Positions 1 through 37,477 are shown, counted from the first letter of the stretch. The stretch is DNA of 37,477 nt from Moniliella sp. 'wahieum' (GCA_003971905.1 RSEE01000103.1:186001-223477); one strand, 5' to 3'. The notes: a model not told the origin generated them from the sequence alone. Program-made: numbers and translations.

Positions 1-489
1 TCGATCTCCCAACACACAGCGCAGCGCAGCGCTCGACGCAAAACACAGTGACCGGTGACCTAACTTGGGATTGCTTGTCACCCTCTGAGGCTACTTAAAC
101 ACTCCATTACAACTTCACACTTGTCCCACGATACCTTACGATTTCATCACATCTGCTCCCATTCCCGCGCCTGCCATCCGCATCGCTGGTATAGCTTGGG
201 CAGAAGAGCAAGCACTATGAGGGACAGTGGAAAACATAGTAAGAGCGTCATTGGCGTTGTTGCGTTGACGCGGACGTCGAGCACGTCGAACGTGGAACTT
301 CATATCAGATCTCAGAATCTCTCCGATCCGGAATTCAGACACAACCCTATGCAGCGGAGGGTGCAACCCTACTGCTGGGAGGGCTCCACCTCATTTCCGC
401 GCGGCGAGGATTTATCTCATCAAGACGCCGTACGAAGCGCCACCGCCACTTGTGCCCAACACCCAACATCCCACACCCCAACCACCGCC

Positions 490-1419
490 ATGGCGCTGTG
501 TCCCTTGTCCAGCGCTGGTAACGGCGTCCCCCCGCCGCTATCCGATGGTCCGCTACCATCACAATCTACCTCGCTGACCCTCCGCCTTTTCTCCACGGCA
601 TCACCGCTGCCAACGGCGAAGTGTGCATCAGCGACGAGGCTATCCGCTTCTCTGCCGCTCCGGGCGGAGTGAGTTTTGTGCTGGCCCCACGGCAGTGGCA
701 GTACATGCACTCAGTCCGCTTCCCCAACATCCTGAGCGGGAAGCACTTTACATCCTCATTGATGATGCCCCGGACCAAGATGAGGGCGGAGCGGTAGAGC
801 TGTGGATTTCGGCACCTGCTTCGGAGCGGGGACTTAAGGAGGCGTACGATGCCCTCTCTGAGGTGGTTAGGTTGCATACTCCATCTCCACCTACATGGGT
901 GGAAGAGGACGAGGAAGGAAAGGAAGGAGATGGAGGAGAGGGAGAAGTGGAAGAGGGAACGTTTGACGATGCGGCGGGAGATTCGGATCAGGGTTCGGAA
1001 CCGGTTGGTTCAGAATTGGAGGGAGAGATGAATTTGAGTGTCCAGGGGAAGGTATGTTGGTTCCCGATCACCGATCACACAGAAGAGGGTACTGACTGGG
1101 CTCCCTAGCGCACGCTCGCACACTTGGAGAACATCTTGGATTGGCCATCGGACATTCCTGGACCTTTCCCCGGTGCCGCAGAACAGGGTCGATCGCCTGT
1201 AGCGACCACGGCCTTGTCTGCGTCCGCGTCACTAGGGGCGGGATTGTTCCCTACCGTCACTTCTCGGGGTTGCAACCTACGTCGTTCCCGCCCTTGCCCA
1301 GTACGATTTCTGAGCCCGAGGGGGACTTGACTGCCGACTTGACTGAAGGGGCTCTGGATGATGCAGAGGAAGAGCCAACGAGCTGGCCCAAGCCAAGGCG
1401 GAACCGGAAACAACGGTGA
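490..1419 (+). CDS. pICln/Lot5-like (Voldacs domain) protein, frameshifted in this read
   Basis: ATG at 490 in good context (accgccATGg). Reconstructed across frames: NGEVCISDEAIRF...AVAVHALSP...ALYILID...VELWI...LKEAYDALSEVVRLH, then an acidic tract. Intron 1052-1108 (GTATGT...TACTGAC...CTAG) joins QGK|RTLAHLENIL, and an acidic tail reads GALDDAEEE. This layout matches pICln/Lot5. The stop is 1330 or 1419 depending on one frameshift. Confidence 0.65.
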
Positions 1420-2331
1420 CGACCAAAAAAGCCCGACGCCTTCGCTGTATTGATCTTCACAGGTCTTCCACCGGAATTCTTTGAGTTTCCTCGCTTGGGA
1501 AAAGCGCTGCTGGACCTGCTTCATGCGTATGGCGAGTTGAGGCGGTACGTGCCGCTTCCAGCCCATGGACGTGCAATCGTGGTCTATGCCCAAACCGATG
1601 CGGCTGGGCGGGCCAAGGCAAAATTGGATCGCCTGCTGATTCCGCTGGAAGGCGATGCGCCAAGCGCTTCGTCTCAGTCGGGCGAAAAGGTGGTCCACTT
1701 GCCCGCCGGCAGAGCGGGTCTAGCGCTCCGTGTGTACTTTGGCCAGAAGGGCGACGAGCTCATCTGGGCTCCCCTGCCCAGTAAGACAACGGACGAGTCG
1801 AACCACCTCATTGTACCGGCAGCTGAACGCAACTTCCTCATCTCCCCTCCTGGCAGTCCGCCTGTGGGATGGGAACCGATCGTGGAGGATGCACCCAATC
1901 GAGACACGCTGGCAGACGACTTGATTGCAGCGTTGGGGCGGTTGCGAGATGTGGGTGGGATTGCCTTTGCCGACAACGACCTTTCTTTGGACGCGCAGCA
2001 TTCCGAACCCAAGGGAACACCCACCTCCACCCCTCCGCCAGAAACCGCGCAGCTACTTGTCCGCCTGCGGACGCTCCGATGCTTGGGCACGCGGATCCGG
2101 GGGGAGGACCACAGGTGCTCATCGTGCCGCAGGGGGACATGCCTGGTTACAAGTCGTTTGCATCAAGGAGAGGGGGTAGTGCCTGCCCTGGGGGCACCTA
2201 CCCATTCCATCTCGACCGTCAAGGCCACCGTCGATGCGTTCTACGCGACCCATGGTCACATGGGAGAAGCCGGGGGGAAGCAAGGGGTGGATCATCGCCC
2301 ACCTACACCGACTCCTCCCATGCTCACCTAG
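1358..2331 (+). CDS. RCN1: Calcipressin / regulator of calcineurin (RCAN family)
   Basis: Hallmark FLISPPGSPPVGWE motif, RRM-like N-terminus (LIFTGLP...RAIVVY...LRVYFG), and a PxIxIT-like PQVLIV in an alternate frame near 2107. ORF 1450-2331 has no N-terminal ATG. The nearest ATGs (1358/1361) need a frameshift, so the start is uncertain. Confidence 0.9.
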
Positions 2332-2789
2332 CCGAGGGGGAGAAAAGGATATTCCCCACGGCGCGGCCGCGGTGGAGCTACGAGACGAAGACTAGTGGGC
2401 TTGATGGATGAAATGAACCCTTTTGAAGGAAGAGGCCATACGAAAGGGCTCCTGCAGCTCAAATTTTATCTGCTCCCATCTGTACATCTCATACCTGGTT
2501 GGTCCAGTGGATGACAGCTTGCGCCATGTCCTCTGGGCAGTATGAAGGAGTGTGCCCACACATGGGGAATCGGATGGGGGTGACCAACTTGTGATGCTGA
2601 GTGATGAGTGTGAGTGCACGTGCCTCTCTAAGAGACGAGAGATGTGGTTGTGTCCCATCCCTTGTTGCGCAGCCATCATTAGCCTCTGTCACTTCGACCG
2701 ACTCTATCCGCTGTGCTTCCTGTGGCTCATGAATGCATTCTGGGAACGGGAGCATCCGCGAGATAGGAGGTCCACCTGAGATCTGGAGA

Positions 2790-2936
2790 TCTGAAGAGGG
2801 GAGCCTGCCCACTGGTTGAGTAGAAGGGCGAGCAGGGGGTGCGCAGCCTGTGAGCGGAACTCTTCCGCCTGACCACAGGCGAGCGTCACCGATCAATGGA
2901 GGGCCGTGCTGGGGAACCCTAGCATTACCCTTCTCA
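2790..2936 (-). mobile_element. Degenerate 5' part of the solo-LTR family
   Basis: Reverse complement TGAGAAGGGTAATGCTAGGGTTCCCCAGCACGGCCCTCCATTGATCGGTGACGCTCGC...GGCGGAAGAGTTCCGCTCACAGGCTGCGCACCCCCTG aligns to the 5' half of the copies at 17853 and 24200. No TSD found. Confidence 0.75.
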
Positions 2937-3959
2937 GATCTCGCCCAACTCGTACTGAGACTGTCAGGTCGATCTTAGAACTCTCCTCCCCGACCAACCA
3001 ACAAGAGGCCAGAGCGCTGGAGAGGAACAAAGATGGCGCAAGGTGCTGGGTTGTCCCGTTGCCCTTGTCCGAGCACCAGACCAGAACAGGTCAATGAGAA
3101 AAAACTGGGATGATCAATGATTCTCATAGCCAGACCAGGCCAGACCCCGGGTGAAGATTCAAGATTCAGGCGAGGATCCAGATTCAGATTCGCCGATGCG
3201 TTCATCGAGTTCAACGCCCACAGGCCCACACACGGGTAATTGCGACTTAGCACCTAGCCCTTATACGAACCCTCTTATGCGCAGAGCAGTTACGTCCGTA
3301 CGTATTGTACCACTGCCAGGCAACACGTGCAGTCCTACGGCCTACCCCAGGAATGTGCGGGGTAGTGTGTCAGGCGGCTCTCGGATCAAATAATTGTCGG
3401 GTCACTTATTCGTAGTACTCTAGCAGTAGCCAGTAGTAGTAGGTACTAAGTCTGGAAACTCAGCACTCAGACACCTTCTAGAATGTTTCCACCCCCGCAG
3501 CACGCCCTGTGGGCGCACAGACCACCCCCTCTTCGGCGGAAGCCAGCGCCACTCTCGGCGTCTGCCGTGCCGACAGGTGGGTAACCGGTATAACAGGTAA
3601 CCGGTAACCCCGGTATCGCCTACATCGCGCGCCTCGAGAGGAAAAAAGAGAGAACATTCAATATCCATCGGCCATCTCAGTTAGTGCCTGATGAGTGGCG
3701 TGCACACAATCAGCTGCTTTGCGTGTCTGTCTCATGGCATCGCCTCCTTTCACCCGTCCGCAGTACGAGCCCGCACAAGAGAGGGCACGCGTCTTGGCTT
3801 GTACCTCAGCACGTACACGTTGAGCATCCCTCTATGTGCCCAAGTGTCTCGCTCGTGCATCATGCGTATGCAGACTGCCCATGAGCCTTTGCCCCTCTTC
3901 CCTTCAAGCTTCAGGTGGAGAGAGAGCAGCAAGCCCCCATTTGGAGCAATGCTGGGGCG

Positions 3960-3967
3960 TATTTAAA
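3960..3967 (+). promoter_or_regulatory. TATA-like box of the SDR gene
   Basis: TATTTAAA 150 nt upstream of ATG 4110, followed by a CT-rich leader. Confidence 0.4.
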
Positions 3968-4109
3968 AGGGCAGGACACGCACGACTCAATGAATGCTAG
4001 AATTCTTCAAGAACACACCCCAGCATTTCCTCTGCAACCCCACACAACACACTCTATCTCTTTCCAGCTTTTCACTACTACATCTCCCTTTTCCTCACTC
4101 ATCCGCACA

Positions 4110-5077
4110 ATGTCTACCACCTCCGCGCACAACTCGGTTCCTACAGGCACTGCCCCTCGCTTTCTTCCCGGGCTTTCGCTGACGGGCAAGTCGGCGCTGT
4201 TGACTGGTGCAGCTGGCGGGATTGGCAAGGCGATCGCCCGGGGCTACATTGAAAGTGGTGTGAACCGGATGGCGATCTTGGACTTTCATGAGGCGGATGC
4301 CAAGCAGGCCGCGCGGGATTTGATTAAGGAATACGAGGAGGAGAAACACTTGGTGCCCAAGGGCACGTTGGCCATTGAAGGGTTTGGCGCGGATGTCGGC
4401 GACGAGAAGCAAGTGGAAGTGGTGATACCCAAGGTGGCGAACTATTTGGGTCAGATTGACATTTGTTGCACGCAGCGGGCATTATTGCCAACTTCCCCTC
4501 TGAGGCGTACCCGCACGAAGATTACCGCCGCATCCGTTCCACGGACATTGATGGTGCATGGTTCGTTGCCACGCACTGTGCTCGTCATGCGCTCGAGAAT
4601 AAGTACCCGGCCTCGTTCATCCTCATTGCCAGTATGTCGGCAACGATTGTCAACCACCCGCAAAAGCAGTCGCCCTATTGTTTCAGCAAGGGCGCGGTTA
4701 AGCATATGGGCGCCGCTTTGGGCGTCGAGTGGGCCAAACAAAAGATCCGTGTCAACACCATTTCTCCGGGCTATGTTCTTTCTGATCTGAGCCGCAGCGT
4801 GCTTAAGAATGCTCCAATGGCCATGAGATGTACGAGGATTGGGTTCGGAAGACCCCGCTCGGCCGGCTGGGCGAACCGGTACGTGAAGACACCTCACCTC
4901 CTTATTCCTTCAGCTCTGTTGTGACGCGGACATCAACGAAACGAGTACTGACTTTTCTTGGACGTCGCTCTATAGGAAGATATCCAAGGCCTCGCCGTCT
5001 TCCTTGCCTCGGACGCTTCCGCTTATGTCACTGCGACCGACGTGCTTATCGACGGAGGATTCTGCAAGCAAGGATGA
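4110..5077 (+). CDS. Short-chain dehydrogenase/reductase, D-arabinitol 2-dehydrogenase / sorbose / L-xylulose reductase type
   Basis: TGAAGGIG cofactor motif, IASMSATIVNHPQKQSPYCFSK (YxxxK), IRVNTISPGY, and TPLGRLGEP|EDIQGLAVFLASDASAYVTATDVLIDGGF. Intron 4879-4975 (GTACGT...TACTGAC...TAG). Frameshifts near 4470 and 4815. Confidence 0.9.
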
Positions 5078-5745
5078 AGTCATGCACGGAACACGTGCTC
5101 TCGGTAATGAACCACTTTATTTTGCCCCACCCCACACCTCTCTTGCTCAAGTTGGCCAGCGTTCAGTTGTACAGGGGATGCTGCGGTACTGTCATAGACC
5201 GGGGATAGGTCAGCCTCAGAAGGAGGAAGCAGCATCACCTATAGATTGTTGTTGATGAGAACAGAAACAAAGCCTCCGCGAACGCAGTCTTTGATCGTCG
5301 GGTACTGGATCACTTTTTACGCCCGACATATCTCTGGCTCCCGTTGGGGGGATGATGGTCAGGGAGCAGTGAGTGTTGCCAATGACATGGATGCAGAGTA
5401 GAGAGAATCCACTTGAGGGAGTGCGAGTAGTATGACTAACTAGAGCTACTCAAGCTCACTTGAAACTAGAAGTTTGAAGCTTGACTAGCCTCAGGATTAT
5501 GACATTGAAATTTCATCCAACTAAACCCTACTCGAACGGCAGGTAGACCATCTTCGCTCGGCGCAATAATGTATTGAGTCACATCACTGCCGCAGTGCTG
5601 GACTGTGGGGATGCAGCACTGTACCTGTGTCGAAGATCGGGAGGCACTAGGGCTGCTTTGCATCTCCGTCGCTTGCCTAGGCCAGCCCAACGTCGTGGCA
5701 TCCCAACTCGCCGACTCGACACCTTCACCACCCGTTGCTCTCAAG

Positions 5746-5801: not shown

Positions 5802-5810
5802 CCACCCACC

Positions 5811-6295
5811 ATGTCCAACGTAGAGCTTGGTGTGCAGCACGAGCGCGCTTTCCAGAAGCAGCCTCTCTTCCAGAACGCCAAGGTGGCCGCTGGCAAGAAG
5901 GTCAACAACAAGACCAAGCGGTGGCACAAGGACATTGGTCTTGGTTTCAAGACGCCAGCTGCTGCGATTGGGGGCACGTACATTGACAAGAAGTGCCCCT
6001 GGACGGGCTTGGTGTCGATCCGCGGCCGTATCCTCACTGGACGTGTGGTGTCGACCAAGATGACGCGTACCATCATCCGCCGGGAGTACCTGCACTTTGT
6101 GCCCAAGTACAACCGGTATGAGAAGCGGCACAAGAACTTGGCTGCGCATGCTCGCCTGCGTTCCGTGTTGACGTCGGGGACGAGGTGACGGTAGGCCAGT
6201 GCCGCCCGCTTTCGAAGACGGTGCGGTTCAACGTGCTCAAGGTGACCAAGAACAAGGCGCTGGAGAAGGCGGCGAAGCAGTTTGGTCGTTTCTAA
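5811..6295 (+). CDS. RPS11: 40S ribosomal protein S11 (uS17)
   Basis: ERAFQKQP...IGLGFKTP...[21 protein letters not shown]...[15 protein letters not shown]. After a 1-nt frameshift near 6150: [31 protein letters not shown]...KQFGRF*. Confidence 0.97.
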
Positions 6296-9051: not shown

Positions 9052-10022
9052 TTCTGGTTGCGTGAGGCTGAACCGGTTCTTGGTGCGTTTTGTGGTTGGG
9101 AGGACAGGTAGATATGGGCAAGCAAGACGCTCAAGCCATCCGCGGTCATTAGGTCCCCTACTAACCCCCCTGCCCTGCCCTGCCCTCCCCTCGGCCTCCC
9201 CCATTCGGTACTTCCCATACCATACTCGGCACTGTCCTTTTGTTGTATGATGTGCATCGCAGGTTCCAGTCTCTTTTCTTTCATTTCGCTTCGTTTTGCT
9301 ATCCACCCATCTGCATCCCCCATCTCAGTCCAATTGCGTGAGATGCTGCTAACCCACCCACTGCCTTTATCAATTATCGTCATTACCGTCAAGTCGACTG
9401 TTTTCATGCCAAGCTGCCCCCGCCCTTTGCCCCTCCGGAGACGCCCGTCGCGTGTCTCGCAAGTTCGCCAATCGCACCTTCTTGCCATTTCTCTGATGCT
9501 TCTGGAAGTAGTCTTCATCTAGTCATAGCTAGTCACTCTTCACTCTAGTCACTGCAACGAGTCACGCGTCACGAGGGTGCTGGCCACGCTCACGAGGGTT
9601 ACTAGGTTGCTGGTGCGGCCGCCGTTGTTGATAGGATAGCGATAGCTGCTCTCCGCAGAAGGTCAGGCATTTTAGGGGAACGCGCTCATTCACCCTGCCC
9701 GGGAAGGCCCGGGTGGGCGGAGTGGAGAGATGGGCTGAGCGCAGACGCGCATTACAAAGCGTGGCCGGCGGGAGAGCACACAGCGGGCACCGCACGCGGG
9801 CAGTGTGCCTGGCGCGGCGGGGGGCCAGTGTGCATTTTTCGCGGGTTGAGCAGCGCGGCAGCCAACATAAGAATCACCGCAGGACGCGTGACGCGACATG
9901 TGACAGCCGCAGGTGGGCCCACCGCCCTTTTTGGCTTTTGTTCCCGCCAACGCCAACGCCAACGCCCTCGCCTCCCGCCTTTCCCCGCCACACGTTGTGC
10001 CCCCACATCCCTCCACCCGGCC

Positions 10023-10090: not shown

Positions 10091-10105
10091 TCCACGCCCT
10101 TGCCC

Positions 10106-12723: not shown

Positions 12724-13107
12724 GCCAGTCGCTGACCCTCGTCGCCACTTGATCTTTTCTTTCGCTGGCATGCCAACGAACAAAAATGGGGGGGTGGGGG
12801 ACGGGGAAGAGGAAGAGGAAGAGGGAGGGGGGGCAGGAGGCTTCTAAGCCTACCTGCCTGTCCCCCCACCTTACGCCCCCTTAGCGTTTCTTCTGATGTT
12901 GACCGATTTCCTGTGTGTTTCTTTATCTGTACTACTTACTGCTCATCGTGAATACCGATGCTGTCTATGCTCTCCATGTTAGCTGCTATGGTGTGACATG
13001 TAACACGAAACGCATAACGCCTCACTACGAGAACTAGATGAGTGCAAGCCGAGCCGTGGGGGTCGGGACGGTGGGGGGGGGAGGGTACACATGAGATGGA
13101 GATGTGC

Positions 13108-17698: not shown

Positions 17699-17852
17699 GT
17701 TCGGGTGATTCGCCCCTATCTGGACCCAAGCAGGAAATGCGAAGCAGCCAAAGAGGAGAACATACAGCACCGGTCATAATTACCGGCAACCTCCGACCTC
17801 ACGCATTTCATGAAGTCTGCCGCCGATTTTGACGGAAGATTTCCCTCAATTG

Positions 17853-18114
17853 TGTTAGAAGTAGTGCTAGGGTAACCGTGCACGGCCCTCAATGGATCAG
17901 TGACGCTCGCTTAGCCGTCGGGCGGAAGATATCCGCTCGCAGGCCGTGCACGCCCTGTATGCCCGCTCCATCTCCCTTCTCTCTCTCCTTTCTCCTCCCT
18001 TCAGACGTTGCTCGAAGACTGTGGCTCACCACTTTGCCTTCACGCCTTGTCTGAAGGCTGCTTTGCAGTAGCTGATCCATAGGATCGCATGTGCTCCCAA
18101 GTCGCACTCTAGCA
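17853..18114 (+). mobile_element. Solo LTR (~262 bp)
   Basis: TGTTAGA...CTCTAGCA termini (TG...CA with a short inverted repeat). Collinear along its whole length with the reverse complement of 23945-24200. Flanks AATTG / (A)ACTG look like a degenerate TSD. Confidence 0.85.
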
Positions 18115-20035
18115 ACTGACGTTGATCGATCTGAGATCTGATCGGATCTCCGTCGAGATGCATCGACCGCCGTGAACACATCGTCGGCGTCACGCGTCAT
18201 CGATCATCGATTCTCAGCGTCACCGGGGCTTCAGCGACATGCGATGCATCTTCTGCGGTTGACATACTCTTCCACAACTGGTGGCTGGACTACGGGAGCT
18301 GTGGACTGTCACATATGTCACAAGTCGTAACAACCGAAAAACTCCGCCAAATTACAGCAACTGCTAGCTGTTAAAGTTGTGCGACTTCCCAATAGTAGCG
18401 TGAGGTTGTGGCCTGTACCTGCAGTACCTATTTGTGGCAGTGACAGGCGAGCAAGGCAGGGAAGAGGTGGTGAGGATGCAATCAGGGGGAAGGCAGTCTG
18501 GAGTCGCAACAGGAAGGGCGGAACAGAGGCGGAACGGGGCCGCCTCGGACACTTTACGGGGCTTTTTCTCTGTCGATCTTCGGCCAGTACCCAGTCAAGC
18601 TAGTCACATGTCACAGGCGGAGCCTACCGGGACGCTTTTGGCCGTCCTCGAAACCACGGCGTCACCGGGTCACCACCACAGTCATATAATAGAGTGACAT
18701 GTGTGAGTTGCCAATCACCTAGTCACCCGTCGGTTGCCGCAATTATTGGTGCTTCCTGGTTACCGGTTACCGGATACGTCGTGCACCGCGGAAAGAACTT
18801 TCATGAACGTGGGCACCCGGGGCAACCTCATACCACTCTGCCACTACTACGCCCACTCGCTTTGCCGCCGGGAGTAACCTGGGGTATCCTTGATCAATAT
18901 CACTCTCCTTCCTCCCATCACGGTGTGCGTTCCTCGGTTGGTTTCTGTGGGGCTTGCCCGTCCCGCCTTGTGCTGCGCTCCTCTCGACAGTAGGGGAGGT
19001 GGTGAGCGGACACGGGGGTAGCGGTGCCGGTGACGCGGTGACGCTTCCAGCTTGGAAGCCTAGAAGCTTGGAAGCTTGAAGCTTGAAGCTGGTAAGGGCT
19101 ACGCGCTATTACGGGCGCTACAGGCTACAGGCCACCTAGTTCCTAGTCACATGTCACATGTCACAGTCTTTTTCGTGAGTGCGTATACCCAGTCCCGCGT
19201 GACGCGTGACGCGCGTGACGTCGGCCAAACGAAACGCAGGAGATCATCGATCACCGATTGCAATCCGCGATACAAGGCACTGCGTCTCAGTTCAGGTGGT
19301 GGAGTACGCTGACGTTGAGTAATCAGAGTGCTCAACTGGGTGTACTGAGTAACGTTGAACGTTGAGGGAGTACTGAGTACCTGCGCAGTCGATATGGTTG
19401 GAGGTTGGAGGTGGAACGCTGCCGCTCTGACGGGTGGTGGAGGGCAGGGGGTGCTGAGGCGCTGAGTACGCTGAGTGCTGGGTGTGTCGCAGTGTGACAG
19501 ACAGGTGACGGTGCCTGCTGTGCCGTGATGCCGCGGAGGTGCCGACGGAGGACGGATGGATGACGTCGTACCCTCTGATGGTGCCGGACGGGCGCAGAGG
19601 CGTGGCGCGTGGGGGCAGTGCCGTGTCGTCTGGGGACGACGCGTGCCGTGCGGACACGCCCGGGTCGAGTACTTTTGAGTCAATAGCCCTCTCGATTCCA
19701 GGGATTGCCGGCCAAGCGCAGTCGCTGGTCGCGGAGGGCGACAGACGCAGCACTTGGTCTGCCCACCCGCCTGGCCACGCACTGGCTCAGCACACTCAGT
19801 ACGCAGTGCCTCGTGCGCCCCTCAGCGTTTCGCACTTGTTAGTTGGTAGCACAGCAGGGCGCGCGCACAGTCTGCCAGCCCGGCCATGGAGGTAAACTTA
19901 TTCCCAGCACATCCCGCCCGTCCCGCCGCCTCGCCTGTGCCTCGTTCGGCCACTTAAACCCCTCCCGCCCACGCTCCGACCCACACCCTTCCGCCTTCAC
20001 CTTTTTGTCCTGCAGCGCCTTCCTGTCCCCCTGCC

Positions 20036-22194: not shown

Positions 22195-23944
22195 TTTCTT
22201 TTCTTCCCTCATCCCCCCTCCCTTTCGCCCCCATGCGCCCTTTACTTCATCCTCTCTCATCCTTCATTGTCCTCATCTCTTACTCTCGTGGGGGATCTCG
22301 GCGTGTTGTGCCGCACGTCAAGGACGAACATCCTAGGTTCGTTGCTACTTATGGATTGTACACCTCCATCATATTTGGTACCCTCTACCTTATCTATGTC
22401 TGGACTTTGACATCATTGACTGATGGGGCGAAAAAGGGGCTGTTTCTAGATCAACTAAAGTATATGTAGCTTCATAGATGTTGTGGCCAACTCCTTCCTG
22501 GGCTCCAACGTGAGAGCTCATCGGCTCACGTTACTTCACCAACTTCGTCGTCATCGTCCGCTGTTCACGCGTTCACCGTCACTAGTAGTAATGAGGTGGT
22601 AGAGAGCGTCGTCGCATCCCATAATGGTACTTCCGAACCAAAGAAACAGCGTAGGCAAGGAGGGTGCCACAGTCTCCACGTTTTTTGACCACTGGTCTTG
22701 CCGCCGCATTGGGCCCATATAACCCCCTTTCCCTGCAGATCGAACTGTAGTTGGTCAAATAACTTCAAGATAGGATGATTCCCAGTGTTAGGGGACCAGC
22801 TTGATCAGACCTTCACTCATGGTCCCGCTGGTATCACATGGAGAGGGTACGGGCGAGCTGCACGACCTGTTCCTTCTTTTTTTTTCGCCATGTTTGCCAC
22901 ACGGCTATGGTGGGAGCATCGAATTCCAGTGGGTGCCGGCCCCAGCACAGAGAGAATGTGGACATGAAATGGTTCTTCTGTTGAAGGAGGAGAATGGATG
23001 GTGTGGTGCTGAGAAGAGGTAAGGAGGACATGAGTAGAGCAGCGCCTTATATAGCCGAGGGTACCAGGGCGCAGAGGGGGCGTCGGGCGGATGCGCGTTC
23101 AACATTCAACTGGGTGCCCATTGAAGCGGGCGACAACCGGGCTAGCGCCAGTCGCTTTGAATGGGTCAGTTGGCATCTCTACTTTCCATATCGGAGGGTG
23201 CAAAGAAAAGTGCCAACAACCCTACTGCTCCCCGGCCTGCACGTGACGGGTGGGGGGGGGCTGGCTACGCCAATGATCGGGCATTGACAAGAGTCGCGTC
23301 GACGCATCCCTCCACTACCTTAAAAGGGGAGCGGTGGTGCAAAGAGCAGAGTGGATCAGTGGGGTACAATCTCTTAGATGAAGGACGACTCACGGTCGTT
23401 TCGGCTATTTGCTGGATCCGAGCCGAGGAGAAACCTTTGGGCGTGAAGCCGAGGCGGCTGCACGTTTGGCAAGGCTGCGTATGCGCCGGCTTGGGGTTAG
23501 TAACGTGTCTGAAGCCTCCGACGGGGCTTAGGGACAGGTAGATGCAGTGGAGGACAAACACAGCCAGGCTGAAGCTGGGCAGGGGCGGCCTGTCGACGTA
23601 GCTGTGATAGGAACCCGGGCGATATGCTGTGGTAGCGGGGGAATCGACGCGGCTGAAGGAAGTCTCGCGCCACCGGGCGGATGGAAAGCTGGAGGACGAG
23701 GTTGGATGATGAAAATGAGGCAGCTAAGTGGAGACGATAGGTTGCCTGCATTACTCAATCAGTTGGCCGTGTAAACAGTCAGGAGTTGGACAAGAAAGGC
23801 CGGAAGGGACCAGAATGGAAGGTGGGATAAAGTATCCCACTGATAGAGGATGCTGACTGTTGGTTGAGACCCTTTTTGGTAACCCCCTTCTGTATAAGCC
23901 CCATCGCACTGGCATAGATGTTGACAGAGCGAAACAGACGAAGC

Positions 23945-24200
23945 TGCTACAGAGTGCGACTTGGGAGCACTCGCGATCCTATGGATGAGGCTGCAAAGCA
24001 GCCTTCAGACAGGCATGAAGGCAAAGGGGTAAGCCACAAGTCTCAAGCAACATCTGAAGGAAAGGAGACAGAGTGAGAGAAGGGATGGAGCGAGCAGGGC
24101 GCGCGCGCCTTGCGAGCGGAACCCTTTCGACCGGTTAAGCGAGAGCGTCACCGATCCATTGAGGGGTGCAGGGGAAGCCTATAGCACTACCCCCCCAACA
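23945..24200 (-). mobile_element. Solo LTR (256 bp) with 5-bp target-site duplication
   Basis: GAAGC|TGCTACAGAG...CCCCAACA|GAAGC gives TG...CA ends and a perfect GAAGC TSD. It is an inverted homolog of 17853-18114. Confidence 0.9.
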
Positions 24201-25137
24201 GAAGCAAGCGGAGGCTGCGAAGGCACTAATAATGTCATCCGATAGCACTTCCTCGTAACATGATGTAAACACCTGGGCTGAGCGCTGACTATCTTCAGTC
24301 GATCTAAAGTGAGCTCTCAGTACTCAGTGCCGGCAAGTTTGACCGATTTGACGGGCTGTTAGCAGCAGGTCCGATGCGCAGGCAGCCATGGACCGCTAAA
24401 CCCTGTGGGTCAGGCGCTCAGATTGAGCTCTGGGCGAGACGACGGCCGAGGTGTGAGGTTTGTGAGGCTAACCTCTGAGGGAAGTGTTAAGTCGTTTTGC
24501 TAATCGCGCCACAGTGCAGGTACACTTTTGGTTTTCAATCTGAAATTGCAGGTGAGATCTGAGAGAGGGACACTGTCCCCAGCGCATGCCAACGGCAGTA
24601 GATCGCTCTTCACCGGACGACCGCCGAGAGCAATTAAGAGCAAGTCAGCAAAGCGACCATCATCTGCATCATCGCATCCAAGCGAGCGAGACGCCGACAG
24701 GCGCTGCTGCTTGCAACACTGACGAGACGTTGATCGTCTTTCACTGCACTGCCCTTCGAGCAAAACAGCGACATGGGGCGGCGAGCTGCCTCATCATCGA
24801 CGTCATCCATCGCGCGTGTGTCGTCTCTGCCCCTTCTCCTTGGCTGTGGCCGCAGCGCGTGTCAGCACGTCGGCACTGGTCAAGTCTGCACCAGCAGAAG
24901 GCACCAGCCTGCTGTCCGCGGGTGCGCATCCCCACCCACCACAACCTTCTCGTAGAGAAGCGCTAACCTCTCGTAGAGGGGCGCGGTCCCCAGCTCGCTC
25001 GCGAGTGGGCAAGGCGCATGTCCATGGAATTTCCTCTGCGCCCGTCCGCCCGCATCAACCCGTGACCGAAAAACTCTCCCTCTTCACCCGCATGGTGCCC
25101 CTTGGCCCACCTGCGCCGAACTGCAAGTTGGCTCTGC

Positions 25138-25143
25138 TATAAA
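25138..25143 (+). promoter_or_regulatory. TATA box of the small GPI-protein gene
   Basis: TATAAA about 130 nt upstream of ATG 25272, followed by a CT-rich leader. Confidence 0.5.
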
Positions 25144-25271
25144 CCGGGTCCTGCCTTGGGGCCATAGCCCTTTACCCCCCCTCTCTCACCGTCTCTTTGT
25201 TCTCCCTCTTACCACCACCTTCACACGATCGTTGCAGTCTGATCCCCCGCGGTCACAGTATTTCATCAGTC

Positions 25272-25983
25272 ATGCAGCTCTCCGCCCTCTTTACTTTCCT
25301 CGCGGCTACAGGTGTCGCTGTGGCCCAGCAGCGCTTCAGTATCAACACGCCCACGACGAGTGTGATCGCGGTACGCATCCATTTCCCCTCCTAGGCGCTG
25401 TTTACCCAGCAATGACTTCCAAAAGAGTTGTCTAACCATATCATTCTGCAGTGCGTGCCCCTTAAGGTTAATTGGTCGGGCGGGCAGGCCCTACTCACTG
25501 GTTGTCCACACCTACAGTGGTAGCCCTGGCCCTGTAATCGACACCATTCCCAACCTGTCCGGCACTTCGTACACGTACCATGTCAAGTCCTCTGCGGCCA
25601 ACCAGCAGCTCGAATTCCAGCTCACGACTCGACCGGTGCCACGGCTCAGTCGGGCGCTACACCCAAGGTGTCGAGCAACCCCTCGTGGTACGTTTCCCTG
25701 CTCTCTTTTTCCCTCTGCATCGGCCTCTTTTTCAATCATACCCTTCTGACCCATCGTCATTTGTTCAACAAGCTCGGGCAGCGGTTCGGGCGGCGGTGGC
25801 GGTCGGGTTCAGCCTCATCAGGTTCTGGACCTTCCTCTCGGCTGCGGCGTCGAGTGCGGGGAGCAAACCGTCCGGTTCTTCCGCCCCGAGCTCGTCCAAG
25901 TCCAATCCTCGGCCTCGGGCCCGCTCCGTGCCTCGGCGGCACTGGCTGGGATGGTGGGAGTGGCTGCTGCGGCACTGCTCTAA
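25272..25983 (+). CDS. Small secreted Ser-rich, GPI-anchored cell-surface protein
   Basis: Signal peptide MQLSALFTFLAATGVAVA, then FSINTPTTSVIA|CVPLKVNWSGG...GTSYTYHV...FQLTDSTGATAQS, a Ser-rich stalk and the hydrophobic tail ALAGMVGVAAAALL*. Introns 25371-25451 and 25688-25772. Confidence 0.8.
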
Positions 25984-26594
25984 TATCTCCCCTCTCTTAC
26001 GTCCTGTAGCCGCCCTTGCGATGCGTTCCTACGGGTCTCCTCCCGTATGCCTTTTGTAGGTTCTTTCCACAGGCGGGCTGGGCCAAGTCAACGGGGCCCC
26101 ATCTTAATCCCTGTTCCTTCGCCTTCCTAGTTTGTTTCGGTCCCTACCGCGCGTGGGCTGCGCACACTCTCATACGATATAGCAGCGGCCACCCACCTAC
26201 CCATCTATACTACTTTCCTGATTTTGCTCTCCGGATTGCCAACCTCTTTTCTTTGCCTTCGGGCCTCTTCAAAGTACCTACCTGTTGTTGCTTTTGTCTC
26301 ATCGATCGTACCCTCATCCCTTTGCCGCTTTTGTGTGTTTTCATCCTTTTTTTCCCTTTCCATATGTGCTCGCTCTATATATACTAGCCACGTAGTCGGC
26401 TGACAGGCTCTATCCGGCCCCATGACGGATAGAAAACCACCACACCGGCGTCATGGTCCTCGTAGGCAAATCAGGTAAATCTTCTCATTGCTCTCCGCCG
26501 ATCCTGTTCCCCTTCCCCTACCAGCGCATCCTTTGCTCCCCTTGGTACTTGATCTAATTCGTATCGCCCGTCCCTTACACCGGCGCTACCAATA

Positions 26595-29500
26595 ATGGCG
26601 AAGCGTTTATTCGCCTTGCCGCACGGTTGGATCTACGGTGTTGATACGTCGATCAAGGTGATTGAAATGTTCACGCCAGCCCAGGCGCCCATCACGAGAC
26701 GCAGCAACGCCGAGCAAGGCGTGGACAACCACTGGAATCGCGCGATGGCCATCGCGGACGCCGGCGTGACGCCCGCGGATATGCTCGGGCCAGCCCCAGC
26801 GCCACATGTGGTGCCGCGGGCAGCTCGAACGCAGTCGTGCCTGCTTGCTGTCCTGCTGGTCGCCGCCTCGGCCGACGAGGGCTCGCCGCAGATCGTCTTT
26901 CGCTGGCCGCGTCGGCCAGCGGTGCGCAAACGTCACTCGCGTGTCAAGTACTACACCCAGCAGGAGCATCCGCCCCACCACCATCGCCACCACCACCACA
27001 ATCAACCACAAGACTCTGATCACAACGCCACGCGCCCCTGCCCCCCAGGACCCAGCCCTGCCCGCCGTCCCCCCACGTCGAGCGGCGGCTATGCCTCTGT
27101 TGCCGCCGTCGCTGCCGCGTCATCTGGAATCGTCTCCCCCGGCACAGCTGCTGCCACTACCACTTCTCCGACTGCGCTGGCGAATAGCCGCGGTCGTGCT
27201 CCGACTGTGAGCACGGTGCGCGATCGCGCCGATGCTGTGCGGGGATTGCGGTACGAGGACCCAGTCACCACAGGCGCCACCCTTGCGTCGTAGGGGTGAT
27301 TCGAACCATGCCCACGCCTCCTCTTCGATCCGGGGCGGTACGGAAAAGGGTTTCATCGGCTACGTCTGGCAGTGGCATCGGCGCTCAGTATTCCGATCCT
27401 GTCGGCATGCCCTATTCCCAAGCCCCGCCGCCCGCAGACCCCTCGGATGTGTTTAGTGAAGATCACGAGGACTATTCCGGATACTCCACCTCCTCCTCTG
27501 ACTCCAGTCCTCTTCCCGCACCCAGTCGACCGACAGTGACGTGCCCATGGACGCTGCCGCCGCATGACCGCCGTGGCTCGGACCAGTCCGGCTCGGTGTC
27601 GAATCCAGGCGCACGGATGGGGGCGAGTTGGACCAGCCCTGCTCCAGGGTTAAAGGAGGATCTGCGTCCCGACTCGCAATCGCCGGGTCCGGGTACGATG
27701 AGGCGTCCCTGACCAAATCCTATAACCGCTACCTTGGCTTTGACACGACCTATCTTGCCAGCATGCTCAACCCTCGCGAGTTGAGCGACCGCAAGTTTGA
27801 ACTGATTGTGGACGACCTGGCCTTTGTTGGCCACCCAGTCTCGCTTTCACCTGGAACGACCGCGACTGGTACGGGGCAACCGATGGCGCGCAACTCGACC
27901 GATTACTTGGCTGCCGACACGGCTCCTCTCCCTGTTGATCCCGGCTGGGACGCCGCTGACATGGGACAGACACCAAGTTCTCGCTCGCACTCTTTTTCTT
28001 CCTCTGGTTCGCCGCTCCCGTTCGGCACGGAGAAGGAAGAGCCTGCTCGGGGAGTGGACTGCAGTTTTTTCCATTTTGTTCTCGTTTTGGACGGCCAGAC
28101 CCGTCGTGGGACATGCCGTTTATGGATGCCAACTTGGCCATGCAGTTTTTTATACTAAGTTGTCTTTAAGATGACCGCCGCCCTCTATGCCGAGCAGGAA
28201 CGAGTCAACTTTGTTGGCACCGAAGTCCACCGGCTTGTGGTGCTCAAGGAGAAGTGCATGCGCCTCGGCTTTTCCCTAAAGCAATTCCAAAACCAAGCCT
28301 TGGCCACCTCCTCTTTGGCCCGCAGCCTTCGGAACGTGTTCACCAAGATCTCGGCCGGCGAAGACTGTGGTGGTCATCAACATCGCATCGAGGCTCATCT
28401 GCAGTTGCCTCCCATCCTGCGACTGGGACCAGTGCTGCACAAGGTGCAGGATGTGGTGACCGACTTGGACCCGAACGATCCCGAGTGGCTCAAGGGCTCG
28501 GATTCGCTGGTTTGGGGGATGGGAGAGATACATTTGAAGCGATGATGCAGCTCGTCCCGAGGAGCTCATGTACGAGGAGTGGACGCGGACCATTGGGCCG
28601 TACCTGCTGCCATGGAAGACTCTGCTGATGATGGACGACTCGCTTTCAAATTCCCGACATCCTTTCGCCCACGGCCGACTGGGCGGAAGATGGTGCTCAC
28701 CCCCGCTCCGACACGTGGACACGTGGACTGGCTTCGACGTCCCTGTCCATGGCCCGCACTCGCCCCAGCTCTCCCGACCCCAAGCGGCCGAAATGTGGGC
28801 AGAGGCCGTCGGCATGGAACCATGGGCCGAGCAGTTTATCCGACTGCTGCGCCCTACGCCCGAGGGCATCCCCACGTACGTACCCGCTCCCGCCGTGTTC
28901 CTTGTGCGATGTGAAATTAAAACTGCGCCAGCTTTGCCGAGCTGCAAGACCTGCTCGGCTGGAGCCAATGCGAGGACATTTACCCCATGGTGCGCCCACC
29001 TGATCTACTACCGCGAGGCCAAGGTGGTGGATGTTCCGCGGATCAAGAACATCTACATGGTCTCCCCGCTGCTAGACCCGGTTGAGTGCGTCCCCCCCCC
29101 CCCCCCCTCCCCTTCCCTCTTCCGTCCGGACCCCGTCTGACTCCCCGCCTGCTTGCCAGTCTGCCCACCTACGCGTCGGCGTGGGCACGGGACATGCCCC
29201 AGTTCTCCCCCTTTCCCGCTTTCCTGCCGACTGTCAGCTTCGACTCAGGCGTTCAGCAAGCCCCCGACTTTATGCTACGGGGCAAGGCGCATGCTGTGGC
29301 CAAGGCACTCCACATTCGTCATGGAGGCAACCTAGGCGCGATCGTCAAAGCCCTTGCCTTCCGTGCGCTGATTTGGCTCTTGCGTGCCGACGTGATCGTC
29401 CAGTTGCACGTCGCCTCCGCATCCAGATCCGCCCCGAAATCAAGGCGGCTTGGCGGGCCAGCAAAACAGAGTTCGCGTGCTCGCGCCGAGGCCCGAGCCC

Positions 29501-30749
29501 GCGCCCATCCCAGCGCTTCCACCTCCTCTGGCCCTGCCTCCTCGGCAATGGGTGTGCCTCTTCCTGATCCGGTCGAGCCCCAACGGGTCCCCATGCAGCG
29601 TAAACTCTCCAGTTCCCTTACCCAGCTCCCATCTAGCCGTGGGCCCACCAGCTCGTCCTTCGTCGGGCCCCAATCAACTACCTTGGGCACGCTCTTGCGC
29701 GGCCCGCCCACTACCGAAGCTTTGCCCGAACTGACGTTTGATCGTATCCCCGTCAAGCCCATCGAATCCAATCCCGCTCCCTCAGGCGTGTCGCTGATGC
29801 AGCGTGGACGACTTGGCAAGCGAGCGACCGCTCGCGAGCCTCCGTCCGGACCCGCCTTTTCCCTCTGCCAGAACTGGGACGGGTCTGGCCATCCTTCCCC
29901 TGAAGTGCGTCACCCGGCGCTTCCCGGAGCTTGGGCACGGTACAGAGTGAGCCGGTGGCAGTGCGCTTGCTTTCCCACCACCAACCCCGCTCCATCTCGC
30001 GTCCGCGTAAGGTCATCCGTGGTTTGGCGGGGACGAGCAAGTGGCCATTCACCAAGATGACCGCGTTCCTGCCGATTCGCCCAGCCGAGCCAGACCGCCT
30101 TTGGCCTCACTCCGCTGAGCACACCCGTCGGTAGTGCACTTTCGGCAGCCGTCCCGCCTCGGCCCTGTCCCGGCCCCCCGAGGGCCCGGACCCGGCCCTT
30201 GCTCCAGTCTTTTCTCATCCCCCCGCCCCATGTCGGGCGAACGGGGGCTAGGCGAGTCCAACGCGATGAGTGCCGCCACGGGCCTGTCGAGCCTCTTTGC
30301 CGGTGCCCCCTGGGGCCGGGGAAACGGGACAGTAAGCACACCCTCTCCCGCTGGGGCCGAAGCCAAGCTATTCGAGGCCGAGGAACTGTTGGCTGAGTCG
30401 GATTGGCTCTCGATCCCGATTGACGAGGCAACTATCAAGGAGCCCACGCAGATGACCTGGTTCGAGGGCGAGTGGGTGGACTTGGTGATGGAGCGTGCGC
30501 AGCAAGGCGAACCGAGTCGACGCGCGGCGAGGTGCCTGACATGCCTGATCCACCGATGCCCCCTGCGGGCGGGAAGATGGAGAGTGGTCGTGGCTCGGCG
30601 GCGGCGGCGGTGCTGCGGCGCATCCTGCCCTACCTTAATGGCAAGCACTCGCTCGACGAGATTGCGCTGCGGGAGGATCTGCGACGGAGAGAGATTCGGC
30701 TGGTGCGGAGACGTTCAAAGAGGATCTGATTGAGTTCCTGCACCCTTGA
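26595..30749 (+). CDS. NPR3: Nitrogen permease regulator 3 (SEACIT/GATOR1 subunit)
   Basis: LLAVLLV...PQIVFRWP, YLGFDTTYLASMLNP...RKFELIVDDLAFVGHPV, FFHFVLVLD, KMTAALYAEQERVNFV, LLPWKTLL, HLIYYREAKVVD, and C-terminal RILPYLNGKHSLDEIALREDLRRREIR...LIEFLHP*. Introns at about 28876-28931 and 29086-29159. The start could be any ATG from 26595 to 26781. Confidence 0.88.
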
Positions 30750-31644
30750 GGCGGGTGGGCAGGTGGGGAGGTGTGTGTGGGTGGGGTGGTGTCTGTGCGT
30801 GGCAATCCACATGGACTGGAGGGATGGATGGAATGGGCGATGGAACAGACACGGGTCCAACAGGCTTGCAGCGTGTTGCGTGGCTCGATCGGCGTATCCA
30901 CTGGATGCGGCCGCCAGCTGCAGCTGCGCCGTTGGTAGAAGGACGTACTGCACCGGATAACAAGGATGTAGTCCCCACGGCGTTCTGAAGGGGGGATGGC
31001 TTGCCACCCGTACTGGGCGGAGTAGGAGGACGCACGCTGGAGAGATGCGATAATCCCACTATCATGGGCCACTGTTCTGGCAGCATAGCAATTCGACTAG
31101 CGACTGGATTATTATTCGCCTGTCCCGCTTGGCCCTCCGGCCCTCCTGGGTCTCCTGGCGAGCACCGTCGCCTTGGCCTCTCAGGAATGGGGTGCGGGAG
31201 AAACGTCAAGGGAAGCGAGACGCGAGCGCAGGCAGGTCCGGTAGACGAAGATCACCACCAGGCGCAGGAAAGCGTCTGCGCGGCAGGCCAGCTACCCGAG
31301 TGTCGATGGTGCTGATGTGTCGATGATGGACGTACTGGACACGCCAAGCGAGCCCTCCATTAATCAGCCGGGCCCTGCGCTGCAGTGCTGTGCCCGGCGG
31401 GTGGGTGGTGGGGGTGGCTGTGTGGGATGCAGCCAGCACTGCCACGGCACTGCGCCACTCCCCACCTGGCCCACTCTGCAGGAACCGCGTTGCATCGATG
31501 CACGGGGGCAGTATGCGCACGGCCATCGCCCGGCCTCACTGGTCTGCTGCGCGGGCTCGGCAAATGCACCCTGGCACTGGGCATCGCACGGCGCCGTGTG
31601 CACCAGCCACTCCACCTGCCTTTCTGCCTTTTCTGCCCCCCCAG

Positions 31645-31673
31645 CCACCACCACCACCACCACCACCACCACC
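31645..31673 (+). repeat. (CCA)n microsatellite in the cyclin upstream region
   Basis: About 9-10 CCA units followed by CT-rich tracts. Confidence 0.85.
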
Positions 31674-31852
31674 GTTCCGCCTCCACCTCCACTCTTCCTC
31701 TCTTCTTCTTCTTTTCTGCTTTTCTGCTCTTCTGCTTTCACTGGTCGAGAGGGCCACCTCCCTCTCTGTGCGCTCCCGCCATCCACGCTCGTTACTTTCC
31801 GTCCGCCCCCCCCCCCCCACGCTCCCTTCCTCCCCGTCCCACTGCGATCACT

Positions 31853-33409
31853 ATGATGGCCCTCAGCACCGACTCACGCCTTGCACGAACCCACATCCAC
31901 AGCATGTCCAGCACCACCGCCTCAGCTCGCTGCGGTAGCCTCAAGACCGCATCCAAACGTCACTCTGCTGTGTTGTCTCACGCGCGCCGCACTGCTTCGG
32001 TCCCCCACCCGGCTGTCCAGGCCGTGCCACGTGTTTTCCCGTGCCCCCTGGCCCCGCGCCATACTCCCCTTCTTCCGTCCATCGTTCCCACTTCTCGTCT
32101 TTCTCTTCGTCTTTCTCTTCCTCACCTGTACCCGATACCAACGCCTCTGACCACATGATCACCGACGTGTCTCCCTCTTGTCCGAGACGGAGGACTATGT
32201 GGACCTCGAATACCACAGCGAGGTGGTGGCCCACATGCTCAAGATGGAGGTGCGCACTCGATCCGATCACTCCCACGTGCATTTTTGGGATGAAACTGAC
32301 CGGATTCGCTGGTGGATGCTGCACTGCAGGATGCCACTCGTCCCACCTTGGCATGATGGACCAGCCCGAAGTCACCTGGCGCCTACGTCCGTATGTGTTG
32401 GACTTTATGATTGAGATGCACGTCATGTTCGAGTTTCGCCCGAGACACTCTATGTGGCGGTGGGTGTACTGGATCGGTACCTTAGCAAGCGAGTGGTGCT
32501 CAAGCGTCACTACCAGCTCCGGGGCTGTGGCAATGTGGATTGCGGCCAAGTACGAGGACGACAAGGACGCGGTTCCTACCCCCATCGAGCTGGTGGCCAT
32601 GTGTTGTAACTCGCTGATCAGTCGGCGTTCTACCAAATGGAGGCACATATGCTCTCTACCCTGCGCTACGCTATTGGGCGTCCATCGCATGAGGCCTGGT
32701 TGCGCATGTACCTTGCTGGTGATCCTGCGTTGCTGCGTGAGAAGAACCCAGCCGGGCTGATCGCGGTGGCCCGCCTGGCTCTTCATGTGAGCTTGTACCA
32801 GCGGGAGTTTGTGCCGCTGCCCCCCAGCTCAGTCACGGTAGGCGCGCTGTGGTTAGCCGATATTCTGCTCTCCCCCTCTGGTCCCGTGGCTTCTGCAATC
32901 AGTCGCGCCTACGACGAGCTGGACCCGTTGGCATGCGAGGCGATGTTGGCGCTTCACATGCGCTGCGGAATGAGGATGTGTCCCCATTGGTCCGGCAGTT
33001 GTTCCCAGCACGTACTTGCTGTGCAGCAGGCGTTCCGCAGGTGCATCAGCATGCCTCGATGGCCCTCTTGACCGCCACCCTGCCTTCGCCCCCCAGTCTG
33101 ATGGCCACCCCGCCCGCTCGCGGGCGCAGCTCGGGGTCGGACACCCCCATCACCCCTCCCTTGGGCGGGCTGTGGCCTACGCCCCAAACCGTGGGCACGA
33201 CCACGACGGACGACTATGACCCAGGACCCTATACCCCCTTCCACCGTGCTCTCCCCCCTGGTCAACTGTGCTCTTCCCGACGGCGCAGTGATGATGAAAA
33301 CGGACATGCCACTTTCCCCCACCAACCTCCTCACCCCTTGATCCAGTCCACTGCCTTGCCAACGGCCCGCGCGGGGCCCACGATCGTGGTGGATCGGCAA
33401 GATGTATGA
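31853..33409 (+). CDS. G1/S-type cyclin (Cln1/Ccn1-like)
   Basis: EYHSEVVAHMLKME|intron 32250-32329|...MMDQPEVTWRLRPYVLDFMIEMH...LDRYLSKRVVLKRHYQL...AMWIAAKYED...QMEAHMLSTLRYAIGRPSHEAWL. The C-terminus is PEST-like with several S/T-P sites. Start approximate. Confidence 0.88.
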
Positions 33410-34279
33410 CCCTGAGCAGTGCGCTCTTGGTCCCATGCGCATGGCCCAGCCCACGAGAGCACGAGAGCACGAGAGCACGAAAGCAATTTGGTTCTGTTTG
33501 ACTTTTGACGCTCGTGCTCCATCCATTACTACCACACTTCAATGCCCGCCCCCCTGCTGTATTTGACAGCTACTCAAGTTCAAGCTCTTCTCAAGTCTCA
33601 TCGATCACCACCTCACTTTTCACTCAAGATATCAAATTCAACATCTCCGATCCCGCATTGCAAGTATACGCTTCAAGCTTGAAGCTTCCAGCCTCCAGTC
33701 TCCTCCTGCTTTTCCACCCACGCCCACGCGAGTGTGCCCTGCCTCCTCTGCTTGCTCATGCCTTCGTTTTCTAGTTCCGCGGCACCTGCTTGTGGCCAGT
33801 CAGGGCCAGTACCAGCGGGTAAGCCGGCCATGCCCCCCAGTATGATTTGCGTATCCCTGCTGTGTGCTGTCGCCCGCTCGCCTGTCTTTCCTTCTGTTGC
33901 CGCTCGTTGTGTGGCCCGAGATGCGACTGCCGTGGTGGTTGAGTATGCATCGAGCCAGCATCTGTGCGTGTGTTGGTGTGGGGGGAGGGGTGCGCAGGCC
34001 AGATGACCAGCGTCAGGTAGGTTAGCCTCACTGAGGGGTCCTGACTGTGAAATGTGAAGTTGGATGGTGCCCACGTAATCGAGAAGCGCACGCCAGGAGT
34101 AGCTGCGCAGGTGTGACGTCATGGCACGGCCACCCGGCGTGACGTGGCGCCAGCGGGGCGCTGCCAGCGGATGGGGCTGGGATGGGCTGACTGGGCTAAG
34201 CGACGGGGGCCCACCCCTTACGCCGCAGCGCCCCATTCGCTTGCCTGCCCTCCACCGTGTCGTCTCTGCGCCGCCCTGC

Positions 34280-36653
<2,374 letters not shown>

Positions 36654-37107
36654 CCAGCGCCTATTTCACGAAAAGGCCACCACAGTGCCTACTTAGTAGC
36701 ATCGATATCACCTTAGATCTTACACCACTTGAGAAACGCATGCATCATGCCGTGGGCGCTGTCCTCTTTCTTCGGCTGGCCGCTGAGCCCGGGTGTGTTT
36801 TGGTGTAGGTATGGAATTGGCACAGGCATGATACTAGGACACTAGATGGATCCCGCCGGCTGAGCTGTGGTTGCGTGATGTTTGATTCTGCCCCAGGAGG
36901 TCATGAACCCAAAGGGGGTAGTAGCGGGAGAGCTTTTTCAGTGGTGGAACAACGCCACATGCCATTATATTGCCTCACTATCGTCGCGGGTGAGGTGGGG
37001 CGCGCACGAGACACGTCAGGTGCAGGTGCAGTTGGATTGGTGTAGCAGAGGTGTTCAGCGCCGAGCCGCGTCTCCGACATGACGGGAGAAGAGACCCCGT
37101 ACGCCGC

Positions 37108-37159
37108 CTGCATCAGTCAGACAAAAGAAGAGGTGCGGTGTAGGTCGGTTTTCCCTCAC
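37108..37159 (-). other. Probable intron of an unidentified minus-strand transcript
   Basis: Minus strand reads CCT|GTGAGG...TCTTCTTTTGTCTGACTGATGCAG| (52 nt, CTGAC branch point). The flanking peptide is not recognisable. Confidence 0.35.
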
Positions 37160-37477
37160 AGGTGCGGGGGAGCAACCCCCCCCTCGGCGGGCCGAGAACG
37201 GAATGCGGGCGGCAGCACCCATGGCGCCGCAGCCAGCGCCGACGCCGAGGCCCAGATGCCGCCCACGCCGGCCCAGACGGCGGCGGCTGCCCTCAGGGCG
37301 GGCCGGCAAATGCCGATGGGCGTCATCGATCATCGATCACCACGCGCTGTGTGGTGGGTAAATTGTATATGCCTCCCTCGTGCAAGCAGCCGCGTCACCC
37401 ATCCCCGTCATGGATCATCCACCTCGCTACGCCTTCCGCCGGGCCGGGGGCCGCCGCTGTGTGCGGAGACCAGCGCC

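Follow-up and report, generated by a model that had tools for sequence, protein, structure and literature searches.

Palindromic heptamer motifs between the genes of Moniliella sp. 'wahieum' are neutral, rule-bound insertion scars

Introduction

Spacers between genes in Moniliella sp. 'wahieum' carry many short motifs of one design, in which two T-N-A triplets enclose a palindromic four-base core (TNA-N4-TNA) and successive units follow each other every 7 nt. An earlier note described them in a 37,477-nt stretch, hereafter the window, which is C103:186001-223477 (RSEE01000103.1) of the 69.5-Mb, 223-contig assembly. Are these motifs genuine, and if so, are they sites read by a protein or marks left behind by mutation? 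We found that they are real, neutral and rule-bound insertion scars, which occur in their thousands between genes and do not look like protein-read sites. They are probably footprints of transposon excision. Such hairpin-type footprints are already known; of their accumulation across a whole genome under one 7-bp TNA rule we found no report in the literature outside subscription papers.

Results

In the window, 30 of the 74 TNA-N4-TNA sites had a palindromic core, against 3.6 ± 1.9 (maximum 8) in 100 local dinucleotide shuffles. Both triplets shared the same middle base at 25 sites (1.2 ± 1.1 in shuffles). The enrichment was limited to palindromic sites: total spacer-4 pairs stood at 74 against 65.8 ± 8.7. 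No enrichment was found in the window for spacers of 2, 6 and 8 nt (5, 2 and 0 observed; 14.9, 1.0 and 0.3 in shuffles) or for the control triplets ANT, CNG and GNC (3, 12 and 20 observed; 4.4, 17.9 and 17.3 in shuffles). All 20 positions listed in the note (23 units) were recovered as written, together with seven sites that it had missed (2459, 3904, 5506, 24279, 35464, 36616 and 36713). Its estimate of about one chance hit in the intergenic DNA was too low, with the shuffles placing the whole-window figure nearer 4.

The motif is not peculiar to the window. In 237 kb we counted 335 sites, 276 of them with an identical middle base in both triplets, and all 16 possible cores were present. Perfect 7-bp tandem positions in the same DNA were of the A-core-T type in 492 of 804 cases, with the other first bases contributing 6, 2 and 1. 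Genome-wide, one 14-nt array word occurred 1,135 times (574 + 561) and its reversed control 16 times (1 + 15). A sample of 499 kb held 605 sites, which extrapolates to about 84,000 in the genome or some 1.2 per kb. By comparison, 80 metagenome loci around RPS11 relatives, mostly from distant eukaryotes and with close relatives not among them, contained 13 rule-type sites in 628 kb, against 26 in the 37-kb window. In the best of these loci, on an agaricomycete-like contig, 5 of 51 sites were palindromic, which was not above its own controls. The core proved to be set by a flanking dinucleotide, either after the second triplet or before the first, in 23 of the 30 window sites. The core is thus not free, a feature that the earlier note had overlooked.

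We used a second haplotype within the assembly to see how sites arise. Window positions 17716-36028 pair with contig C63 at 91-94% identity, and C1 pairs with C55. More broadly, the assembly appears to hold two haplotypes or subgenomes at 78-97% identity (C103/C63, C1/C55, C17/C62 and C127/C44). The homology between the window and C63 ends upstream of 17716, suggesting a rearrangement or a contig join. Seven-nucleotide indels between haplotypes were commoner than those of 5, 6 or 8 nt (44 against 11, 27 and 16). The alignments covered 118 kb with 4,306 substitutions and gave 68 seven-nucleotide indels, of which 59 were kept after removal of 9 noisy ones. Twenty of the 59 obeyed a single non-tandem rule on one strand or the other, abTNAxy becoming abTNAxy + revcomp(xy) + TNAxy, and a further 9 fitted it but could also be read as tandem copies. 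All rule-following indels were T-centred, and none centred on A, C or G was seen in the 118 kb. The 20 non-tandem events arose without a matching upstream dinucleotide, which rules against one form of mutational scar that had been suggested, a 7-nt duplication at existing quasi-palindromes.

Direction was determined in dispersed repeat families, because a pair of 5-base repeats could also be lost through slippage. The filled form was private to 1 of 6, 1 of 16 and, twice, 1 of 3 copies. At one further site the 7-nt form was present in 2 of 16 copies and a 9-nt form in a third copy. Since the filled form is copy-specific, the events are insertions. Together with the haplotype rule, this polarity supports the second of the note's two proposals, the scar of a mutational process.

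The extent of the copied unit was measured in 723 kb. With the inversion point 2 nt after the A and two inverted bases, sites with 0, 1, 2, 3, 4 and 5 upstream bases copied numbered 820, 84, 70, 2, 3 and 2. The ANT control gave 6, 3, 5, 0, 0 and 0, and all controls lay between 0 and 9. With odd-palindromic targets left out, the 7-, 8- and 9-nt forms numbered 451, 78 and 56 for TNA and at most 17, 6 and 5 for other centres. An initial reading as a 5-bp duplication plus two bases was replaced after these counts: the copied unit measures exactly 7 bp, with TNA at its centre and symmetry about N (2 + 3 + 2 bases), which is what a dimeric enzyme making a staggered cut should leave. Bases inverted from both flanks were seen four times at TNA (2 sites on two strands) and never in controls. 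Isolated events favoured T(C/G)A (198 of 236), with little other preference. The note had also suggested transposon footprints with a 3-bp TNA duplication. The duplication found is instead nnTNAnn, and the PIF/Harbinger-type arrangement of a 3-bp TNA with element-derived bases between does not apply, as all 16 cores are present and are copied from the flank rather than from element ends.

Another way to describe the main product is as 4 copied bases and 3 inverted ones, with T as the microhomology. On that account a nascent strand, switching template during replication or repair, would copy 2-3 opposite-strand bases after TNAxy and re-prime upstream on T. Slippage surely lengthens some arrays, as 9 tandem-compatible indels attest. 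Template switching should, however, act equally on ANT, CNG and GNC, which show nothing. The 8- and 9-nt forms lack the microhomology yet are TNA-specific (78 against 3-6 and 56 against 2-5), and the process gives no reason for the cliff at exactly 7 bp. We regard template switching as improbable.

Most sites stand alone: 631 of 762 runs were single, 105 double and 26 longer. Different cores were combined in 26 of the 105 two-unit arrays, which slippage cannot make. Heptanucleotide microsatellites likewise form short 7-periodic arrays that vary in copy number. Sites here differ from them in being mostly single, in arising without an existing unit and in being bound to one rule. Two unusual arrays were noted. 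At C1:154385 and its C55 homologue, the arrays differ at every middle base (C versus G), as would result from inversion in place or from independent growth on the two strands. At L083:2390-2600, a near-perfect fold-back of about 200 bp consists of heptamer arrays and lies beside a repeat copy.

A sequencing, amplification or assembly artefact is scarcely credible. The assembly does contain many one-nucleotide indels and frameshifted genes. However, two contigs that are 4-10% divergent share 62 identical sites, some scars are common to 13 diverged repeat copies, and sites are nearly absent from coding DNA. As to the quality of the assembly itself, frame switches occur within apparent genes of the window (4463-4469, 6147-6152, 20282-20427, 30510 and 34483-34638) and, together with 677 one-base indels between haplotypes, point to assembly indel errors.

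The motifs are neutral. Substitutions between haplotypes affected 107 of 2,094 motif bases (5.1%) and 521 of 10,358 flanking bases (5.0%). Only 62 of 132 sites were identical in the other haplotype, and 44 had been struck by indels. Long spacers held 570 sites in 277 kb and predicted coding DNA 5 in 155 kb. Densities per kb were 0.03 in coding DNA, 0.19 in intron-like gaps, 2.8 in divergent spacers and 2.1 in convergent spacers, by a rough self-trained gene model whose stop-codon penalty may deepen the coding figure. The 5' and 3' halves of tandem spacers were alike at 1.6-1.7 per kb. Repeat interiors were poor in sites, with 2 in 25 kb (30 copies of the window repeat) against 208 in 72 kb of flanks. 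This distribution fits a process with access to open spacers, combined with selection against frameshifts, rather than a promoter code.

Clustering, confinement to long spacers (1.6-2.8 per kb) and scarcity in intron-like gaps and repeat interiors would also be expected if a factor that recognises symmetry and a 7-bp spacing bound at selected sites in promoters, nucleosome-free regions or origins. Such sites are nevertheless very unlikely. The motif bases diverge at the flank rate, fewer than half the sites are unchanged between haplotypes, convergent spacers are nearly as rich as divergent ones, the halves of tandem spacers are equal, and the cores copy the local flank. The protein-read site proposed in the note is not supported, given the lack of excess conservation or 5' bias and the frequent gain between haplotypes. 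Some scars may have gained a later use.

The features of the window are collected in Table 1. Its genes comprise a Voldacs-domain gene, calcipressin, a short-chain dehydrogenase, RPS11, a lysophospholipase, NPR3, a cyclin and an AFG3-type protease. Across the AFG3 domain, identity to Ustilaginomycotina proteins reaches 86-91%, and the host is thus a smut-related basidiomycete.

Table 1. Scars, variants and related features of the window (window coordinates).
Feature	Position	Strand	Context
Single scar TGACC-GG-TGACC (5-nt direct copy + 2 inverted bases)	49..60	.	Upstream of Voldacs-domain gene
Single scar TCAGA-TC-TCAGA	305..316	.	
Two scars (3598, 3904)	3596..3913	.	Upstream of short-chain dehydrogenase gene
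Sites 5475 and 5506	5475..5515	.	Upstream of RPS11; flanks do not match core, so decayed or chance
Single scar TCACG-CG-TCACG	9562..9573	.	
Scar with one later middle-base change	12992..13005	.	
Densest cluster, 11 seven-base units	18130..19476	.	Long spacer between minus-strand gene and lysophospholipase gene; mixed-core array at 18190
8- and 9-base variants in densest cluster	18661, 19030, 19205, 19453, 19461		
Empty target GG-TGA-GG	18469..18475	+	C63 homologue has 7-nt insertion
Scar AG-TCA-CA + TG-TCA-CA	18602..18615	+	C63 homologue has extra 9-nt insertion (full 7-mer + 2 inverted bases)
8-nt variant (6-base copy + 2 inverted bases)	19453..19466	-	Absent in C63 homologue
Dispersed repeat	23175..24253	+	No target duplication; absent from C63; no scar inside; internal control
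Scars 24279, 24317, 24553 and 9-base variant 24658	24277..24673	.	
Sites 33598 and 33673	33598..33684	.	Upstream of AFG3-type protease gene
Perfect palindrome within AFG3 coding sequence	35464..35473	.	Off-rule; chance
Sites 36616 and 36713 (flanks unmatched), two-unit array at 37323	36616..37339	.	Downstream of AFG3

Discussion

Our data establish by what rule the insertions arise and in which direction, that the unit spans 7 bp, that it is specific to TNA and that the scars are neutral. The reading that we consider probable is that a cut-and-paste DNA transposon left the motifs as footprints of its excision, through a 7-bp nnTNAnn target duplication, flank hairpins, a 2-nt opening and end joining, over repeated visits. 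The element would insert at nnT(C/G)Ann through a 7-nt staggered cut, duplicating abTNAxy. On excision both flanks would be sealed as hairpins, with the tip exactly at the end of the duplicate, and a host nuclease of the Pso2/Artemis type would open them 2 nt past the tip. This would give 4-nt palindromic 3' overhangs, xy y'x' at one end and b'a' ab at the other. End joining that keeps one overhang whole and fully trims the other would yield the 7-nt gain, a product that we do observe (about 84% of cases), whilst 1 or 2 bases left of the trimmed overhang would account for the 8- and 9-nt gains. Each scar holds two new targets 7 nt apart, and revisits together with slippage could build the short arrays, some with mixed cores. 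The main product may equally stem from an opening at 3 nt and joining through a one-base T-A microhomology, and its dominance would then be accounted for.

The individual steps have precedents. Pso2 and Artemis are described as cleaving 2 nt 3' of a hairpin apex (PMC3299998), flank hairpins are reported for hAT, Transib, MULE and RAG (PMC5499845, PMC4840297), and 7-bp duplications are attributed to basidiomycete hAT7 and Kyakuja elements (PMC12730594). In its workings the process would resemble V(D)J coding joints and the footprints of hairpin-type excision.

One close parallel is the footprints with P nucleotides left by Ac/Ds (hAT) in plants, S. cerevisiae and C. albicans, which likewise retain the target duplication and carry short inverted additions from flank hairpins. 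The hAT7 elements of rust fungi, as described in PMC12730594, make duplications of the same 7-bp length as here. In the account of PMC5873905, however, Ac palindromes centre on the complement of the element-adjacent base, whereas here the palindrome is even and the last base is kept. Footprints of the Ac-like form, with the palindrome centred on one base, showed no excess (56 for TNA and 56 for the ANT control). The scars here are also fixed genome-wide at about 1.2 per kb.

RAG/Transib and V(D)J coding joints share with our sites flank hairpins, 2-nt P additions and end joining (PMC4840297, PMC3299998). Transib duplications, in the description of PMC4840297, are 5 bp and GC-rich, whereas those here are 7 bp around TNA, heritable and fungal. 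A 5-bp duplication does not describe our sites, where copies of 6 and 7 bases were enriched and those of 8 were not. Fungal EnSpm/CACTA elements (CMC; CNIRT6, CNEST) are grouped with Transib as CMCT, and Tnp2 loci are present in this genome. The fungal EnSpm members covered by PMC12730594 and PMC12810828 duplicate 2-3 bp, against the 7 bp implied here. Kyakuja (KDZ) elements of Agaricomycotina make 7-bp duplications in basidiomycetes, like those here, and are described as lacking terminal inverted repeats, so that they would be easy to miss (PMC12730594).

Several observations weigh against excision of a transposon. Of the 59 clean indels, 30 do not fit the rule exactly. Two scars were ancestral in one repeat family, filled in most copies and decaying by point changes, and several other repeat-family sites were uninformative on direction owing to arrays or misalignments. 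Plain 7-bp duplications were hardly enriched (TNA 130, ANT 148). The junctions are far more uniform than Ac/Ds footprints, for which PMC5873905 counts 28 kinds among 128 revertants. In the roughly 0.9 Mb scanned of the 69.5 Mb, we found no element bounded by a 7-bp nnTNAnn duplication, and none of 9 large haplotype-specific gaps carried such a duplication. Domain searches for hAT (PF05699) and KDZ (PF18758) gave no match, but their controls were blank too. The four Tnp2-type loci (C17/C62, C34, C127/C44) showed no terminal repeat with a 7-bp duplication. Finally, about 84,000 sites imply very many visits for an element that was not found. One element could hop repeatedly and scar many sites with no rise in copy number, which lessens this difficulty but does not remove it.

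These Tnp2-type loci (CACTA; PF02992), one of them over the cut-off, were the only cut-and-paste transposase family detected. One gene, at C17:556200-558350 and C62:282000-283100, is syntenic in both haplotypes, lacks terminal repeats and is possibly domesticated or dead. By motif reading, His replaces the first catalytic Asp in the C17 gene, its C62 homologue has stops, and the C17 protein had no homologue among the longer proteins searched. The gene at C34:513300-516700 is apparently single-copy, with catalytic-type motifs, several frameshifts and no stops in the homologous frames. A weak CAC..GTG pair (16/20) with a 3-bp duplication at C34 511854-516747 may be due to chance. At C127:103700-117000, Tnp2-like remnants lie in a large inverted duplication.

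Such a gene could in principle act without any element. A transposase-derived or other nuclease, perhaps an end-less Tnp2-type gene, would cut nnTNAnn with a 7-nt stagger, and the ends would be filled, hairpinned, opened and joined in one event. In favour are the lack of any occupied site in the haplotype gaps and the scanned DNA, the very uniform product and the setting of the Tnp2-type genes, which sit among host genes without clear terminal repeats, one of them in both haplotypes. One Tnp2-type gene also keeps a full-length set of reading frames whose sole interruptions are frameshifts, and one-nucleotide indels are frequent in this assembly. On the other hand, we know of no chemistry that, with no element inserted, yields both a directly repeated 7-mer and a hairpin at its end. 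A hairpin of the tyrosine-recombinase or protelomerase type would invert the TNA triplet, yet 276 of 335 sites keep the middle base. The altered catalytic residue in C17 and the stops in C62 also count against it. We think this explanation unlikely, though less so than the others. Were it right, a transposase-derived enzyme would be serving, with no mobile element, as a sequence-specific, self-propagating germline mutator with P-nucleotide chemistry in accessible non-coding DNA. Such an enzyme would have written palindromic heptamers by the tens of thousands and would seed most 7-bp repeats of the genome.

Two candidate source elements were rejected. A 7.3-kb stretch of C63 had apparent terminal repeats and a CC-TCA-GG duplication, but this 7-mer is an odd palindrome that belongs to a dispersed repeat, present there as two inverted copies. 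The window repeat at 23175-24253 shows no target duplication, although some copies have arrays at both ends. Its family is dispersed, 1.0-1.5 kb long, with 738 candidate matches, a fixed right end and no target duplication, and an inverted partial copy lies at window 17861-18117. In about 22 of 29 copies inspected by eye, AT occupies bases 6-7 past the right end (GT-N5-AT), which recalls a tyrosine-recombinase-type target. A separate 285-bp haplotype-specific insertion at C1:139990-140275, with TC..CTAG ends, a 3' hairpin and an A|T target, is a non-autonomous Helitron.

We found no published report of such scars as a genome-wide feature in the literature outside subscription papers. If the transposon reading is right, excision scars, which laboratory work usually meets at single loci, would be a main force in non-coding evolution in this fungus, with 20 fixed events for 4,306 substitutions between haplotypes, or about one per 215. 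The 492 of 804 perfect tandem positions and the extrapolated sites would trace to scars, providing a route from transposon visits to microsatellites. The scars would form a fossil map of where the element could land, in long spacers and rarely in repeat interiors or intron-like gaps, and would record how a wild fungus opens hairpins and joins ends. The same reading predicts a hairpin-forming element with a 7-bp nnTNAnn target. The motifs also carry a warning, that an over-represented motif in promoter regions can be a mutational by-product.

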